Source of the DNA: a virus | Lineage: Duplodnaviria > Heunggongvirae > Uroviricota > Caudoviricetes | Virus record (IMG/VR): IMGVR_UViG_3300044712_002452 | Coordinates: 75,336 to 139,335 of that record | Reading direction: 5' to 3' (one strand) | DNA length: 64,000 nt | In this document: piece after piece, positions 4,028 to 61,926 of the stretch | Layout: the number at the start of each line of letters is the position of its first letter | Position numbering within the stretch: the first letter of the stretch is position 1 | Translations under genes and position numbers: made by a program | Notes under the pieces: generated by a model | The model's input: the letters and a program-made list of their open reading frames with translations, nothing else | The model's database searches: none | Told to the model about the DNA's origin: nothing

Positions 4028-4453
4028 TTAACACCAATAACTGATTTTCCAATAATACCCGTTGTTTAAAGGGAAAAGTAAATACCCTGAATAATTATCT
4101 TCACAAGCCCCGGTTTTTTGCCAAACTAAACTGTGAAACTCACCATTATCATCTTGCCTCATGTAATCAATATCTTCTCCAAAAAGTACAGAATAAGAGA
4201 CATCACCTTTTATTTTGTAGAAATCGTGACTTGGATAAAAACAACTTTTATAATCTGATTTTTCAACTTGCACATAACCTTCGTGTTTCCATTCAATGCC
4301 ATCAAGTTCCATTAAATCAAAGTCGTAGTTAATATGCTTTTTTACAAATTCGATAGCTTCTTCGTTTAACTTGGCGATACGCTCATATTCGATTTTCATG
4401 GTTTGGTGAAATTCAGACAAAGCTTTTTCAACTTGTTCTTTTGTGGGTGTCAT
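4028..4453 (-). CDS. hypothetical protein
   Basis: ORF 4028..4501. The start is probably the internal Met of MTPTKEQ, which avoids a long overlap. Confidence 0.4.
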   Translation of the reverse strand: MTPTKEQVEKALSEFHQTMKIEYERIAKLNEEAIEFVKKHINYDFDLMELDGIEWKHEGYVQVEKSDYKSCFYPSHDFYKIKGDVSYSVLFGEDIDYMRQDDNGEFHSLVWQKTGACEDNYSGYLLFPLNNGYYWKISYWC

Positions 4454-32612: not shown

Positions 32613-32634
32613 ACAACACCATTAAAAAACTCCG

Positions 32635-33143
32635 TGGAGCCGGGGGGAGTCGAACCCCCGTCTTGATAAGAATCCCCATTAGCATACTCTTACGTGCGTA
32701 GTACTGAAGTGTCCACCGCGCTACCTTCCGGCTTTGCTTTGTCTGTATTCTTCTGCACCGTAGTTAGGGCTGCTGGTTAAAGCAACCTCCACCACCAACT
32801 TTTGAGAAAAGCTGGAAAACGAATCGGAGTTAGCCTATCCGATAACCAGATTGTATGCCGAATCTCACGGCGCAACTTCGGTACTATTAGTTTGGCGTAC
32901 GCCACTCTCCCTACCAATCTGTATATAGTTTTGCGACTTTCTGTTCCACCACTGTCGCCGCGGGATCGCAAATTAAGCTGCTACAGCTTCATTCTGGAAG
33001 ATGCTTGCCAAGATGGCTTCACCTTCAGCGATGCGGGAAATCTTTGATTTGCCGTTTATAGAATTCCATGGATTGCAGGCACATGGCGCCCTTACACGAT
33101 GCTAACGTTGATCACGAATCAATCAAATTCCAAAGTCGGCCCC
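32635..33143 (-). ncRNA. ssrA: tmRNA (ssrA)
   Basis: On the minus strand the 5' end GGGGCCGACUUUGGAAUUUGAUUGAUUCGUG parallels the E. coli tmRNA 5' end. The 3' end GACGGGGGUUCGACUCCCCCCGGCUCCA has a T-arm plus acceptor, and the 7-bp acceptor pairs GGGGCCG/CGGCUCC. An internal reading frame ends ...QNEAVAA-UAA, like YALAA. A rho-independent terminator follows at 32588-32612. Length about 509 nt; 5' end is less certain. Confidence 0.6.
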
Positions 33144-37360: not shown

Positions 37361-37493
37361 CAGATATCATTACCTGTTGAGCATCTGACACAGTAAAAGT
37401 ATCAAGTTTCAAAGTAGCTATTTTGATAAACGCATCTTTAGATAATAGTTCGTACCCTGCGCTTAATAATTTGATTTTATCTCCGGTTTTCAT
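37263..37493 (-). CDS. hypothetical small protein
   Basis: 76 aa. Overlaps the upstream gene by about 98 nt, so the true start is unclear. Confidence 0.3.
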   Translation of the reverse strand: MKTGDKIKLLSAGYELLSKDAFIKIATLKLDTFTVSDAQQVMISDDNGENRRLVWEVYVEEIDDLIGLENIHWKKV

Positions 37494-37531
37494 ATCAAAT
37501 GCTTTAAAATGTGATCAAATGCCGTTGAAAA

Positions 37532-37753
37532 CTATAATTTTTCAAGCTCCGCTTTTATGGTGCACCAGTAGTTTGTCTTTTCAGAACTCTCGGCATTATC
37601 GGCTAGAAGTACTACGGCTACTAAAGCGGATTTTTTAGCAATGCTTTTATTTACCAGGTAAATATTTACCGGGTTGCCATCAGCATCAGTCGCCTCTTTT
37701 ACAAAATGTCGAAACTTATCCCGAAAAGCTATGGCTTGTTCTTTTAAAGTCAT
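37532..37753 (-). CDS. hypothetical small protein
   Basis: 73 aa ORF. Confidence 0.35.
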   Translation of the reverse strand: MTLKEQAIAFRDKFRHFVKEATDADGNPVNIYLVNKSIAKKSALVAVVLLADNAESSEKTNYWCTIKAELEKL

Positions 37754-38133
37754 ATCAGATGTTTTAGAATGTGATCAAATGCTGCGGAATAAGCTTCTTG
37801 TGGTGAATTTGGTGAGTCATAATTAGCTGCAATAACTTCCCATCTGGGAATAATAGTGTCACTTTTTTTGTGAAACTGTGTCCAAAATTCGCCTTTATAA
37901 TTTTGTTCGCATGATATAAAAATACCGTGATTAACTCTCAACCATTCAACAACTTGGTGTTGTTCAGGTATTGAGTAATAAGGTACTTCAGATTGGTAGT
38001 GATTCCAATCATAAGTATCCCAAAAAAATTCTGCATCAGGTAGACATAATGGCAAAATTGTTTCATCTCCAATTTTTGCAGATTTCTGTCTATATGCTAA
38101 CGTAGGTACATCAAATCCTTTTTCTTTAAGCAA
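37750..38133 (-). CDS. hypothetical protein
   Basis: 127 aa ORF. Confidence 0.45.
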   Translation of the reverse strand: MLKEKGFDVPTLAYRQKSAKIGDETILPLCLPDAEFFWDTYDWNHYQSEVPYYSIPEQHQVVEWLRVNHGIFISCEQNYKGEFWTQFHKKSDTIIPRWEVIAANYDSPNSPQEAYSAAFDHILKHLI

Positions 38134-38190: not shown

Positions 38191-38260
38191 AGCATGTCAG
38201 GGAATCGAACCCCGCTATTAGTCACCCGCCCAATAATCATCATCCAAGACGAACATGCTG
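38191..38260 (-). other. tRNA-like 70-nt element (T-arm plus acceptor-like 3' end; not a canonical tRNA)
   Basis: Minus strand AGCAUGU...CGGGG-UUCGAUU-CCCUG-ACAUGCU-U has a terminal 7-bp pairing and a GGGGUUCGAUUCCC T-arm, but no canonical D or anticodon arms. Confidence 0.25.
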
Positions 38261-38324: not shown

Positions 38325-39128
38325 TTAATTAACCGTTTTTAGTAAAGACACCGGCGCGTTTCCGTATAACGGTGTTTTCCCATCCCATTTTTCAATAAAC
38401 TGCTGCTGAAGTAACTGAGGTGTGATACCGCTACTTCGAATTTTGTTTTGCTCAGCTTGGAGCATTTCAAGTTCATTTCTTTTACGCTGCTCTAAAATTT
38501 GTTGATCCAGTACACTGACGTTCGTATTGACTTCATTTCGACTATCGATCTTGGCTTTTACTTTTTCGCTGAAATCCAAATTAGCGGAAAACGTAATCAA
38601 TTCAAGACCTTTGTTTTTAAATGACTCTTTTACTAAATCTTGGATCCGTTGTTCAAACTTTAGCGAGCCACCGTTGGCCATTAAGGTATCAGTAGTATAT
38701 TTTCGGCTTTCTTCTTTAATCAAATCGTATATGTGAGGTTCCAGTACTTTATCTTCCAAAGCTTCCATAAATGAATCGTTGCTACCTAACCGGGCGTTTT
38801 GAAATACTACGTCAACGGCTGCGGACTCAATGATCTTGTAACTGTACAAAGGTTTTGCTGTGAATTCGGTATTATCGGCTGCTTTAAGATGCAATACACT
38901 TTCTCCAAAATTGGCTCTTTGTTCAAAAGCAGGTACTTGAAATAATTCAGATCCCGGAGCAATCGTGTTCACTCGTCCTTTTTCTACTGTGTAATCAGAT
39001 TTTGATTTACCGTAGTTTGACATCAGAACACCGTAATAGTTTGGTGCAACCCGTTCACAAGAAGTGAAGGATACCATTGAAATACAAAGTGCTAATAAGG
39101 TAATAGCTACCGTTCGAAATTTTCGCAT
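38325..39128 (-). CDS. lipoprotein, possibly SPFH/band-7-like
   Basis: Signal peptide plus lipobox FTSC. 267 aa. Terminator hairpin at 38265-38300. Confidence 0.45.
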   Translation of the reverse strand: MRKFRTVAITLLALCISMVSFTSCERVAPNYYGVLMSNYGKSKSDYTVEKGRVNTIAPGSELFQVPAFEQRANFGESVLHLKAADNTEFTAKPLYSYKIIESAAVDVVFQNARLGSNDSFMEALEDKVLEPHIYDLIKEESRKYTTDTLMANGGSLKFEQRIQDLVKESFKNKGLELITFSANLDFSEKVKAKIDSRNEVNTNVSVLDQQILEQRKRNELEMLQAEQNKIRSSGITPQLLQQQFIEKWDGKTPLYGNAPVSLLKTVN

Positions 39129-39133
39129 AATGC

Positions 39134-39304
39134 TTATTGGTTTTTGTTATTAGAAAAATAGTTGATGAAATGGTTAACGATGAAAATAATGCCGAATACT
39201 CCGACACCGATTCCAATCCAAGGATGGGCACGATTAAATAACCATCCGCAGAATCCAATAAAAGCCAGGATTCCAATGACTGTAAATGCACTTTTCAGAA
39301 ACAT
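39134..39304 (-). CDS. small membrane protein (56 aa, not in ORF track frame)
   Basis: MFLKSAFTVIGILAFIGFCGWLFNRAHPWIGIGVGVFGIIFIVNHF has two TM helices. Confidence 0.35.
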   Translation of the reverse strand: MFLKSAFTVIGILAFIGFCGWLFNRAHPWIGIGVGVFGIIFIVNHFINYFSNNKNQ

Positions 39305-39334
39305 TTGTTTTGTTGGTTTTAAATTAAAAAATAG

Positions 39335-39518
39335 TACCGAGGACAGGATTCGAACCTGTATGCCGCACTTCTAGCATTTATCATTTCTGCCGACTTTCCA
39401 ATCCTAAGTAGGTCAGAATCTAGTTGTCCCACTGACTAATGGCTTTCATCAGATTTTTAATGCTTAGGGTATGGGGTGCTGCTGAATCTCATGCGTCTAC
39501 CAATTTCGCCACCTCGGC
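39335..39518 (-). tRNA. tRNA-Leu-like gene interrupted by an about 120-nt insertion
   Basis: 5' part GCCGAGGUGGCGAAAUUGGUAGACGCAUGAGAUUCAG matches the canonical tRNA-Leu start (acceptor, D-arm, CAG in the anticodon-loop position). 3' part ACAGGUUCGAAUCCUGUCCUCGGUA is a T-arm plus the acceptor CCUCGGU, complementary to GCCGAGG. The two parts are 184 nt apart. Confidence 0.4.
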
Positions 39519-39668
39519 ATATCTAATGTTTTGTAATCCTTTTGTGCGATTAAATCCACAAGCCTCGCAAGCATATTAAGCTCACCTTCCTTACAAAACA
39601 CTAGAACGTAAATTCCCCAATATTTAAAGGAGTCATAATTTTTTGCGCCATGTAATTTAGTTTTGGTT

Positions 39669-40187
39669 TTAAAAATCATGCGGTGTCAGCAACTTAATCC
39701 AATTATCCAATAATCTGCAGATTTCAGTTTTTGTTGCCTCATCTGTCAGGTGATGCTTTTGAAACTTTTCATATTTATCTAATAGATTTTTTGGAGCTTG
39801 TTTGTAAGTAATATGCTCATAGTAAATTAAAGTACTCTTCAAATTTCCGGTTCTTACCGAGTTCATCATACACGCTAAATCGTTTGAAATACTTTTATAT
39901 TTTTTTGAATTATTATCAAAAACTAAATAAGGTATATCATAAAGCGGTACCGATTCTTTATCAATTTTCCAAAGCTCTTTAAGTTTTTCGTCTGGTACAA
40001 ATCCCAGAATAGCAGCTCCGCCTAAACAAGCTGTACATGCCAAATTACCCTTCAGACTTAACCATGTAAGCATATAAAACTTAAAGCCGTGTTTGTCCAA
40101 CCGTTTAACGTCTTGTTTTACGGATTCCAGTAGTTCACATATGGTAAACTCTCCAATATTATCTAAAGTCATAATTCTTTGTGCCAT
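39669..40187 (-). CDS. hypothetical protein (MAQRIMTLDNIGEF N-terminus)
   Basis: 172 aa. Its first about 16 codons and 20-nt upstream region are duplicated at 39600-39668. Confidence 0.5.
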   Translation of the reverse strand: MAQRIMTLDNIGEFTICELLESVKQDVKRLDKHGFKFYMLTWLSLKGNLACTACLGGAAILGFVPDEKLKELWKIDKESVPLYDIPYLVFDNNSKKYKSISNDLACMMNSVRTGNLKSTLIYYEHITYKQAPKNLLDKYEKFQKHHLTDEATKTEICRLLDNWIKLLTPHDF

Positions 40188-40264
40188 GTAATTTGGTTTT
40201 GGTGTAAAAAAAAATATGAAACAAATGAGTTCTGTACAGTTTGCACAGAACTCATTGAAAACGA

Positions 40265-49252: not shown

Positions 49253-49274
49253 GTTTTATACTTTAGGTGGAAAC

Positions 49275-49350
49275 AAATCTACAACTTAAATCTACATTTC
49301 CAAATTTATTTGTAGAATAATTTTGCGGTTTCAATTTAGTTTGTAGATTT
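49275..49350. promoter_or_regulatory. cluster of four TTTGTAGA-family motifs (two per orientation) at the edge of the switch region
   Basis: AAATCTACAAC and AAATCTACATTT on the minus side. TTTGTAGAATAA and TTTGTAGATTT on the plus side. Confidence 0.45.
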
Positions 49351-49418
49351 GCATCCAGCAATCGTGGGAGCTTAACCGGGGGCGGTTGAGATCCTTTATG
49401 TTGGGGTACAAGTTTCGT

Positions 49419-49452
49419 TAATTTTGTGTTTTAGGGACCGACCTGCGTTTTT
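49419..49452 (+). terminator. plus-strand rho-independent terminator inside the non-coding switch region
   Basis: GACCTGCG-ttttta-CGCGGGTC then TTTTTTTTG. No plus-strand CDS lies upstream of it. Confidence 0.5.
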
Positions 49453-50251
49453 ACGCGGGTCTTTTTTTTGCCTAAAAATCAAGTCTCTAAAATAATTTTG
49501 TAGATATAAAAACCGTTTGTAGATTTGTTGCCCAACATAGGATTGTTTATCAATCCATCGGTTGATGTATGTTCGGCTGCGCTATCGCCCCCGCTTTAAA
49601 ACTTGGTGACAAGTAGGGTTACGGGAATTCGGTAGGGTACCCGATGTCGGTTCTGCCGGCGCTTAAAGCACAAATTGAGGTACGTAAAATCCATGGGTCT
49701 GCTTTGATTAAAACATTATTCAAGGTTCGTTTCGGGGGAAACTAAGATTCATCTCTTGTAAAGGTTCACGGGTAAAACCGGGAACGGACAAACAAACTCT
49801 CTGAGGCTTTAAGGGTATATCAACCGCTGATCAAGCAACCGGGAAAAATTAAACCCGGTTGCTTTATACCAGGAGCGAACCCGCTCGTGTTAACCCTCGG
49901 TATATACTTCTTACAATAGGTCTTGTATGTTTTGAGTAAGGTTAGAAAAATTGACTGTATCCTTCGAATGTACTTGCTTTCAGGACCTATCCCACGCACG
50001 CACACGCGTAAGCACCCATTCCAATCGTAAAAATTTTTCCCCGCCGGCATGGGCCGGACATAAAAAAGCCCCAAGATAAATAGCTCGGGGCGTATGGTGA
50101 TATCCTGAACTTCACCATTGACCTACAACAAAAATAAAAAAATAAATGTAGGAAAGAAAATTAATTCGCTTTTTATTGTAGATATATTTTGTAGATTAAA
50201 ATACTATTTGTATGTTCGTATTATCTATTCTCTGAATTCAAGTTAAAATCC

Positions 50252-61854: not shown

Positions 61855-61926
61855 AGCGGGGTAGAGCAGAGGTAGCTCGTTAGGCTCATAACCTAAAGGC
61901 CGGTGGTTCGATCCCATCTCCCGCTA
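61855..61926 (+). tRNA. tRNA-Met (CAT anticodon; elongator or Ile-lysidine type)
   Basis: Cloverleaf: acceptor AGCGGGG/TCCCGCT, D-arm GAGC-AGAGGTA-GCTC, anticodon arm TTAGG-CTCATAA-CCTAA, T-arm GGTGG-TTCGATC-CCATC. Confidence 0.75.

Follow-up and report, generated by a model that had tools for sequence, protein, structure and literature searches.

A putative non-decoding tRNA-like gene of tRNA-Leu type in a crAss-like phage and its kin in uncultured phages

Species 1 and species 2 RNAs of phage T4 (rnaC and rnaD) are phage-encoded and non-decoding, and they are located in the T4 tRNA cluster on the strand of the tRNAs. Species 1 RNA, which we regard as the closest natural precedent for the element described here, carries a canonical T arm (CCGGGUUCGAAUCCCGG) and an acceptor-like closure at its end. 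To our knowledge, the function of both T4 RNAs is still unknown. In other systems, that is in the t-elements, mascRNA, the MHV68 TMERs and the engineered 'tRNA scaffold', a tRNA-shaped fold serves processing by RNase P and RNase Z and stability, not decoding; in the engineered scaffold, a foreign RNA takes the place of the anticodon arm. A different deviation from the standard gene is represented by the tRNA-Leu(UAA) genes of cyanobacteria and plastids, which are interrupted in or near the anticodon loop by group I introns of at least ~200 nt that adopt the P1–P9 fold and are found by the Rfam group I model. Here we analyse a tRNA-like element at 39335..39518 (minus strand) in a 64,000-nt stretch of a Caudoviricetes genome (IMG/VR record IMGVR_UViG_3300044712_002452, positions 75,336 to 139,335), which is referred to as the window throughout. 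The phage is crAss-like, as it encodes a Crass_capsid protein, a DnaB-like helicase and a DnaA-like protein. It is present in the samples JGI 3300042876 and SRR24010765. On balance, the evidence tips towards reading the element as the gene for a non-decoding, tRNA-shaped small RNA that is built on a tRNA-Leu chassis and stands in or near a large family of uncultured-phage elements.

A tRNA-Leu frame around a 133-nt core

The RNA is read from the minus strand, so that its position n corresponds to window position 39519 − n. It is composed of the following parts:

39335..39518, minus strand (39518→39335): whole tRNA-like element, 184 nt, delimited by an Rfam tRNA match and by a scan for acceptor stem plus T arm
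39512..39518, minus strand: 5' strand of the acceptor stem, GCCGAGG, pairing 7/7 with 39336–39342
39493..39509, minus strand: leucine-type D arm GCG-AAAUUGGUAGA-CGC with G18 and G19, identical to that of family members such as L029:4810
39360..39492, minus strand: core of 133 nt between D arm and T arm, replacing anticodon arm and variable arm
39446..39452, minus strand: CUGAUGA heptamer, taken from the sequence (39452–39446)
39343..39359, minus strand: T arm ACAGG-UUCGAAU-CCUGU, agreeing at 17/17 bases with the commonest T arm of the family
39335..39342, minus strand: 3' strand of the acceptor stem, CCUCGGU, plus discriminator A; CCA is not encoded and the trailer is CUAUUUUUU

The acceptor stem GCCGAGG/CCUCGGU is thus fully paired, counting the wobble pair G1·U72; it is followed by the discriminator A73, and the dinucleotide UG links the 5' acceptor strand to the D arm. 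The Rfam tRNA model matches 39518→39335 with 32.5 bits (gathering score 29) across a large internal insertion, corresponding to E = 0.0064 when the whole window is searched and to 5e-05 when the search is confined to the 501-nt region 39250–39750, while ARAGORN at default settings makes no call for the element. A scan of the window for a T arm with a 7-bp acceptor closure found three sites as compared to none or one in each of 20 shuffles. Over the first 37 nt, reaching the UUCAG of the anticodon loop, the element is ~88% identical to the tRNA-Leu genes of E. coli. The core begins with A-UGAGA-UUCAG, of which UGAGA-UUCAG is a relic of the 5' strand and loop of the anticodon stem, and it ends with a U at the equivalent of position 48. 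Judged by these sequence features, descent of the element from a tRNA-Leu-type gene is supported.

A first-pass annotation of this DNA had described canonical tRNA-Leu 5' and 3' parts with complementary acceptor strands, separated by 119 nt. The parts are indeed present, on the minus strand and with 7/7 acceptor pairs, and so is their separation; its size depends on the definition, amounting to 133 nt from D arm to T arm or to 104 nt if the ARAGORN 'intron' is counted. The CUGAUGA, the GAAA boxes and the TAGT/ACTA stem listed by the same annotation are likewise all in the sequence, the gap holding several GAAA motifs and a 4-bp UAGU/ACUA stem besides the heptamer named above.

As compared to bacterial tRNA-Leu, a type II tRNA, the element shares the 7-bp acceptor stem, A73, the D arm GGCGRAAUUGGUAGACGC with G18 and G19, U8/A14, the equivalent of A15–U48 and the T loop UUCGAAU. 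Unlike bacterial tRNA-Leu, it has neither a closing strand for the anticodon stem, and hence no anticodon arm, nor a variable-arm hairpin; in their place there is the 133-nt gap between D and T arms, and the first acceptor pair is G1·U72. The T4 RNAs differ from the element in that they show no sequence similarity to it, lack a leucine-type D arm, are single-copy each and form no multi-copy family with interchangeable cores. The engineered tRNA scaffold has the same architecture, and the likeness to t-elements, mascRNA and the herpesvirus TMERs is looser; however, all of these occur in other organisms, none is homologous, none forms a multi-copy phage family, and processing of the present element is predicted. 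In contrast to the tRNA-Leu(UAA) intron genes, with which it has in common that a tRNA-Leu is interrupted in or near the anticodon loop, the element gives no group I match, and no junction restores an anticodon arm. With hammerhead ribozymes it shares only the motifs CUGAUGA … GAAA, the three-helix junction being absent. A transfer-messenger RNA (tmRNA), which has a tag reading frame, pseudoknots and a tRNA-like domain lacking the D stem, was ruled out, as the D stem is intact and the Rfam tmRNA model has no match at the element, its sole match in the window being at 33143→32632.

Two further observations concern known or cellular genes of related appearance. Bacillus phage 0305phi8-36 (EF583821; L227:525-638) has an annotated tRNA-like element of 114 nt, listed as 'intron-containing Arg-tRNA' with a Cove score of 22.4, as well as a 'pseudo tRNA'; these may be further non-decoding tRNA-like genes, in this case in a cultured phage. 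Two cellular contigs (L197:1087-1263 and L201:139-458) provide, one or the other, a tRNA-Ser gene with two additional copies of its 3' T-arm/acceptor segment in tandem behind it, which is an integrative-element pattern, and a tRNA-Ser-like gene with an insert of ~250 nt.

A family of elements with the same frame in uncultured phages

The first relatives were obtained from loci encoding kin of the band-7 protein whose gene adjoins the element, which means that these loci were not chosen for the frame. They hold at least 13 elements with the same D and T arms and differing cores (two each in L008 and L013, at least five in L029, three in L033 and one in L052), and the acceptor AGUCAGG/CCUGACU recurs in nearly all of them. 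The resulting family frame is near-invariant and reads AGUCAGG-UG-GCGGAAUUGGUAGACGC … U-ACAGGUUCGAAUCCUGU-CCUGACU-A, enclosing cores that are unrelated to each other. Its 3' 26-mer, ACAGGTTCGAATCCTGTCCTGACTAC, occurs in at least 120 IMG/VR phage contigs, from which and from the other loci ~200 family elements of 69–270 nt were extracted. The copies often number several per genome, share the strand of the tRNAs and sometimes lie 4–10 nt from genuine tRNAs; in the 5-kb locus L062, at least nine elements and five tRNAs are packed into ~3.8 kb. The commonest T arm is present in 141 of 203 copies. A 24-nt version of the seed retrieved only 18 contigs of metagenome-assembled genomes among 185,579 species genomes, about half of them labelled Bacteroidota, in line with a family specific to phages; there is no family member in 50,697 GenBank phage records.

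Standard tools scarcely recognize these elements: in Rfam they yield weak tRNA matches only (31–45 bits), and ARAGORN at default settings picks up 45 of 202 members and assigns them scattered anticodons. In the smallest members the place of the anticodon arm is taken, as judged by eye, by a short hairpin whose loop has 3–4 nt. A few members resemble real tRNAs, namely Lys(UUU) and Leu(UAA) with a long anticodon stem, which suggests that the family emerges by degrees from genuine phage tRNAs. Rfam has no family for these elements as far as we could find, and no paper describing them turned up in the literature that can be searched without subscription; one survey mentions unspecified tRNA-like candidates in IMG/VR (PMC10690425).

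The window element is akin to this family in its frame. Its T arm, ACAGGUUCGAAUCCUGU preceded by U, has the family sequence at 17 of 17 bases, and its D arm has the family form UG-GCG(R)AAUUGGUAGA-CGC, in a variant that is also present in L029:4810 and others. The non-anticodon core of 133 nt gives an element within the family size range. Acceptor variants other than that of the window occur as well (AGCCAGG, AGUGCAA and AGUUGUG). Scanning with the family model R1 revealed no further copy in the window. The window element is probably a member, or else a near derivative, of a large family of uncultured phages whose hosts are probably Bacteroidota. The proposal of the first-pass annotation that the locus is an insertion scar is not supported in the sense of a one-off event, since in other phages ~200 elements combine these D and T arms with unrelated cores at the same place.

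The family is under selection for the pairing of its frame. When the frames of 48 distinct elements were aligned according to the tRNA pairing scheme (alignment A3), 99.2% of cells paired, a fraction that, like the invariance of the 3' half, is partly built in because most loci were seeded by an exact 3' sequence and pairing of acceptor and D stem was required at extraction. Changes on both sides were seen in 8 of the 15 pairs, none of 500 shuffles reached these values, and slid registers gave only 27–37% pairing. Double changes, whether they occur in the D stem or in variant acceptors, owe nothing to the extraction. Relative to the family acceptor, the window acceptor has undergone three compensatory double changes and one change from A-U to G·U, and it still pairs 7/7. 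Moreover, the neighbouring gene in the window has at best ~70% DNA identity to its nearest relatives, yet the T arm is retained at 17/17 bases and the D arm is a family variant. Of 152 non-redundant cores, 129 end in U ahead of the T arm and 127 start with A or U behind the D arm, which fits retained tertiary contacts of a tRNA.

The cores behave differently from the frame. A comparison of 183 cores showed that 152 have no 12-mer in common with any other; no k-mer is universal, and no motif common to the family cores was found. On average, the cores are a little more stable in folding than shuffled sequence, with a mean z-score of −0.96, and 18% lie below −2. Eighteen small core groups recur between contigs, and some of them display compensatory changes (GCGU/ACGC versus GUGU/ACAC; CAUACAAC/GUUGUAUG versus CAUAUAAU/GUUAUAUG), from which it follows that at least some cores are kept folded.

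Family elements sit inside tRNA arrays. Wherever an element and a genuine tRNA are no more than 500 nt apart, they share a strand (49 of 49 elements), and 11 elements come within 10 nt of a tRNA; all 71 neighbouring element pairs are co-oriented, usually with gaps of 50–300 nt. Since the elements are organised like tRNA arrays, this layout argues for co-transcription and tRNA-type processing. Clustering of the 1,232 neighbouring open reading frames (ORFs) within 4 kb of the elements identified the following as the commonest neighbours:

Large terminase: near family elements in 12 of ~120 loci
DUF932: near family elements in 11 of ~120 loci
T5orf172/GIY-YIG-like: near family elements in 9 of ~120 loci

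Several individual loci deserve mention. In three elements (L109:4837-5005, L115:4212-4392 and L139:3737-3918), the D loop houses a second insertion of ~60–80 nt besides the central core. L013:6217-6489 is reported by ARAGORN in intron mode as 'tRNA-Arg(tct)' with a 197-nt insert, which would be enough for a group I intron. Finally, a tRNA/tRNA-like array in L068 contains, at 4124-4186, a match to freshwater-1 RNA (RF02979) with 70.1 bits against a gathering score of 72.

Surroundings of the element in the window

The genes and signals around the element that are relevant for its interpretation are as follows:

39669..40211, minus strand: gene for a 172-aa protein, with the original of a repeated start region at 40144–40211
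39601..39675, minus strand: apparent decayed 5' fragment of a paralogue of the 172-aa gene, consisting of 20 upstream nt, 16 codons and a stop
39568..39597, minus strand: weak candidate for a Bacteroidota-type promoter, TTTG-N18-TAtgCTTG, ~50 nt upstream of the element, read from the sequence
38325..39304, minus strand: genes for a 56-aa membrane protein and a band-7 (SPFH) protein (Pfam Band_7), bracketed by the two tRNA-like elements
38191..38259, minus strand (38259→38191): second tRNA-like element, 69 nt, from the acceptor plus T-arm scan and folding
32632-33143, minus strand: phage tmRNA, 512 nt (Rfam RF00023, 57.1 bits, gathering score 47)

The first-pass annotation had also reported a repeat of the start of the neighbouring gene beside the tRNA-like halves. 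This repeat is real: 39608–39675 repeats 40144–40211 with 81–82% identity over 68 nt, and the 21-mer ACCAAAACYAAATTACATGGC is found exactly twice in the window as compared to no such case in 100 shuffles. The copy, which starts right at the stop codon of the 172-aa gene, reads from ATG to TAG at 39651→39601 as MAQKIMTPLNIGEFTF followed by a stop. The 172-aa protein belongs to no Pfam family and has one distant homologue only among 5.8 billion proteins, which is 49% identical and encoded at a contig end (L196). The repeat copy reads GEFTF, as does this homologue (GEFTFCEL), whereas the intact gene reads GEFTIC. The simplest reading is that the repeat is the decayed 5' end of a tandem paralogue, the rest of which was lost by deletion or by replacement; in the latter case, the replacing segment may be the one that now carries the tRNA-like gene. 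The repeat is unrelated to the function of the tRNA-like RNA. The sequence of T arm and acceptor 3' strand is single-copy in the window, and duplication of an integrase attachment site was rejected for this reason. Because the tRNA 3' segment is not duplicated, the repeat is no evidence for site-specific integration, and of the insertion or recombination event at a tRNA envisaged earlier, a rearrangement in the form of a recombination or deletion remnant is supported and integration at the tRNA is not. Upstream of the 172-aa gene, ~36 nt from its start, there is a strong terminator-like hairpin of 15 bp followed by a T-rich tail (40224-40256, minus strand).

The second tRNA-like element is 1.1 kb and the tmRNA gene 6.2 kb away from the main element, both on its strand; the only canonical tRNA of the window, at 61855, is on the opposite strand. 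The second element combines a 7-bp acceptor stem (AGCAUGU/ACAUGCU) and the T arm CGGGG-UUCGAUU-CCCUG with non-canonical D and 'anticodon' arms, that is a 5-bp 'D' stem without the linker at positions 8–9 and a 7-bp 'anticodon' stem with an 8-nt loop, and its minimum-free-energy fold is a non-canonical cloverleaf. It is located 66 nt downstream of the band-7 gene, where the relatives L008, L013, L029 and L033 carry family elements. Scanning of IMG/VR with a 22-nt seed of the second element returned no relative. The tmRNA gene was missed by ARAGORN; its tag frame at 33053→32973 reads GKSKISRIAEGEAILASIFQNEAVAA followed by a stop, which at 26 residues is unusually long and has the typical …AVAA end.

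The candidate promoter deviates by one mismatch from the consensus TTTG-N17-21-TAnnTTTG, and exact matches to this consensus number nine in the window against three expected. By its sequence, 39568..39597 is a possible promoter of the main element. Elsewhere in the window, three exact consensus matches (TTTG…TAGATTTG) cluster within 250 nt on both strands at 49274-49527, which looks like a divergent promoter region between two gene blocks. A 40-nt repeat with 85% identity (37490-37529 and 37750-37789), probably a repeated regulatory or gene-start sequence, directly precedes two consecutive small minus-strand genes.

Competing explanations and a possible role of the RNA

Several points weigh against our interpretation of the window element. 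Its acceptor, GCCGAGG/CCUCGGU, differs from the family acceptor AGUCAGG/CCUGACU at four pairs, so that the window copy could be an independent derivative of a tRNA-Leu, and model R1 failed to bridge the 133-nt insert, detecting the two halves separately. The core folds no better than shuffled sequence (z = −0.39), as does the whole element (z = −0.25). No homologue of the core was found by BLAST against 192 loci, by seed scans of IMG/VR, in which two core seeds gave one chance match in a coding region and nothing else, or by a metagenome scan. The window-type 5' and 3' frames were not found in IMG/VR either; a metagenome scan with the 3' frame of the window hit mostly ordinary cellular tRNAs and one related element, L221:346-508, which has the acceptor 3' strand and trailer of the window around a different core. 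As the only other copies of the window locus (JGI and Logan contigs) are 100% identical to it, the core is left without comparative support. No partner protein is consistently near the family elements, the commonest neighbour family reaching 12 of ~120 loci, and the extraction bias mentioned above applies to the frame statistics. Finally, the role as a decoy that we consider below is a conjecture.

The locus could be thought of as an inactive, decaying pseudogene of tRNA-Leu(CAG) that was disrupted just past the anticodon by an insertion or rearrangement. This would account for the 5' half retaining UGAGA-UUCAG, which resembles the 5' strand of the anticodon stem followed by a CAG anticodon, for a core that is unstructured by z-score and has no homologue, for the G1·U72 wobble, for the short direct repeat AGAUUCAG … AGAUUCUG, read from the sequence, that flanks part of the core, and for the gene fragment 80 nt upstream, which tells that the region was rearranged. 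However, neither the D arm nor the T arm nor U48 shows damage, and all seven acceptor pairs are kept, despite a neighbouring gene with only ~70% DNA identity to its nearest relatives. Moreover, hundreds of elements have the same architecture along with compensatory changes, and another tRNA-like element that lacks a canonical anticodon arm is found at a distance of 1.1 kb, in synteny with relatives; we therefore rate decay as unlikely. About equally unlikely in our view is that the fold acts as RNA-processing 'punctuation', recruiting RNase P and RNase Z to cut the transcript between the 172-aa gene and the 56-aa/band-7 genes, in which case the RNA product itself would be irrelevant. The two enzymes need the acceptor/T minihelix, and conservation of the leucine-type D arm goes beyond these needs. 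Two tRNA-like elements do bracket the 56-aa/band-7 pair on the strand of the genes, small ORF-sized intervals separate the elements in L008 and L033, the frame alone is conserved with the cores being free, and the t-elements of plant mitochondria are a documented precedent (PMC1920247). Dense arrays such as L062, with at least nine elements and five tRNAs in ~3.8 kb and gaps of 50–300 nt, nevertheless leave little to punctuate.

Splicing would require that the element is a functional tRNA-Leu from which an intervening sequence of 104–133 nt is removed by an unknown or non-canonical mechanism, and a non-canonical or mobile intron was among the earlier suggestions. The 5' half does continue through UUCAG, and ARAGORN in intron mode reports tRNA-Leu(caa) with a 104-nt intron; however, of the five positions in the anticodon stem of this call, only two are Watson-Crick paired and one is G·U. 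When all artificial splice products were run through ARAGORN, 119 of 544 were accepted with ~20 different anticodon readings, some of them malformed (2 or 4 bases), and for this reason the call does not discriminate; it thus reflects the strong frame and provides no evidence for an intron. Enumeration of every exon junction yielded none with a 5/5 anticodon stem plus a normal variable arm: no junction forms five pairs, and the best ones form four, with a 'variable region' of 45–54 nt remaining ahead of the T arm. Even the smallest known group I introns, at ~200 nt, exceed the insert in length, no group I model matches, and family members of 69–72 nt are too small for an intron plus an anticodon arm. 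The intron was rejected on these grounds, and we give a spliced tRNA-Leu very little credence. Similarly slight is the chance that the conserved halves are targets at the DNA level, used by recombination or homing endonucleases to shuffle cassettes between phages, with the RNA fold being incidental. The stems are nearly invariant across many contigs, T5orf172/GIY-YIG-like genes occur near elements in nine loci, a gene fragment adjoins the window element, and SegB cuts within the tRNA regions of T4 and T6 (PMC13096335). Against this, stem variants carry matched changes in the two strands, which is what an RNA would show and a DNA site recognised by a protein would not, the window copy differs at four acceptor pairs, and all elements near tRNAs are co-oriented with them. 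Least credible of all is a hammerhead-like self-cleaving ribozyme within a tRNA, the 'ribozyme-like insert' of the first-pass annotation. CUGAUGA and GAAA are in the right order, but AAGCC following CUGAUGA and GGAUUG preceding GAAA are, by eye, unpaired in register, so that stem II cannot form, and neither motif recurs in other cores. When the 501-nt region was searched against Rfam with permissive filters (E≤10), nothing came up beyond tRNA and one chance miRNA match, with no group I intron and no hammerhead of types I, II, III, HH9 or HH10. The ribozyme was rejected accordingly.

We thus return to a gene for a non-decoding tRNA-shaped RNA. The conserved frame, consisting of acceptor stem, A73, leucine-type D arm, U48 and T arm, comprises the parts that build the tRNA elbow and the acceptor/T minihelix, whereas anticodon and variable arms have given way to a self-contained insert with an unconstrained sequence. 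We infer that the RNA would be transcribed with or beside its neighbours, cut by RNase P at the predicted 5' end (G39518), trimmed at the 3' end (A39335) by RNase Z or exonucleases and supplied with CCA. The resulting L-shaped RNA would be stable and persist, and it would be engaged by tRNA-binding factors without being decodable by the ribosome. Leucyl-tRNA synthetase (LeuRS) recognises A73 and the tertiary core, not the anticodon, and charges even minimal tRNA-Leu substrates that lack the anticodon and variable arms; given this indifference to the anticodon, the RNA may even be leucylated. The frame is probably the working part of the family RNAs, since conservation is confined to it, the cores have nothing in common and genomes commonly carry many copies. 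Candidate roles would be that of a decoy or sponge for a factor that binds or cleaves tRNAs, or that of a carrier stabilising the insert. Defence systems are described as cleaving type II tRNAs at the variable loop, phage tRNA dosage as counteracting this cleavage, and phage tRNAs as acting in the role of supplement or decoy (PMC13096335); by analogy, these findings make a decoy role plausible and do not demonstrate it. A bolder proposal, possible and put forward tentatively, is that uncultured phages, probably of Bacteroidota and with the present crAss-like phage among them, possess a large class of leucine-type tRNA chassis, not described in the literature that was searched, whose anticodon and variable arms are swapped for interchangeable structured modules, as a natural equivalent of the engineered tRNA scaffold. 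Such RNAs would mature like tRNAs, perhaps be charged and never be decoded. With several copies present, they would serve as decoys or sponges, directed either at host factors that bind tRNAs or at immunity that targets tRNAs.

[quoted passage not shown] Neither explanation suits a set of at least 200 phage genes that retain the recognition parts of a tRNA but lack the part that reads codons. As gene finders miss such genes or report them as 'tRNA with intron' or 'pseudo-tRNA', counts of phage tRNAs and inferences on codon reassignment are distorted. The frame is short and nearly invariant, which makes the family easy to search for, and the main value of the present finding is that it leads to a widespread phage RNA family without a description in the literature that was searched. 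This suggests that phages use the tRNA shape for another purpose, be it as decoys, sponges, processing handles or stabilised carriers of RNA modules.

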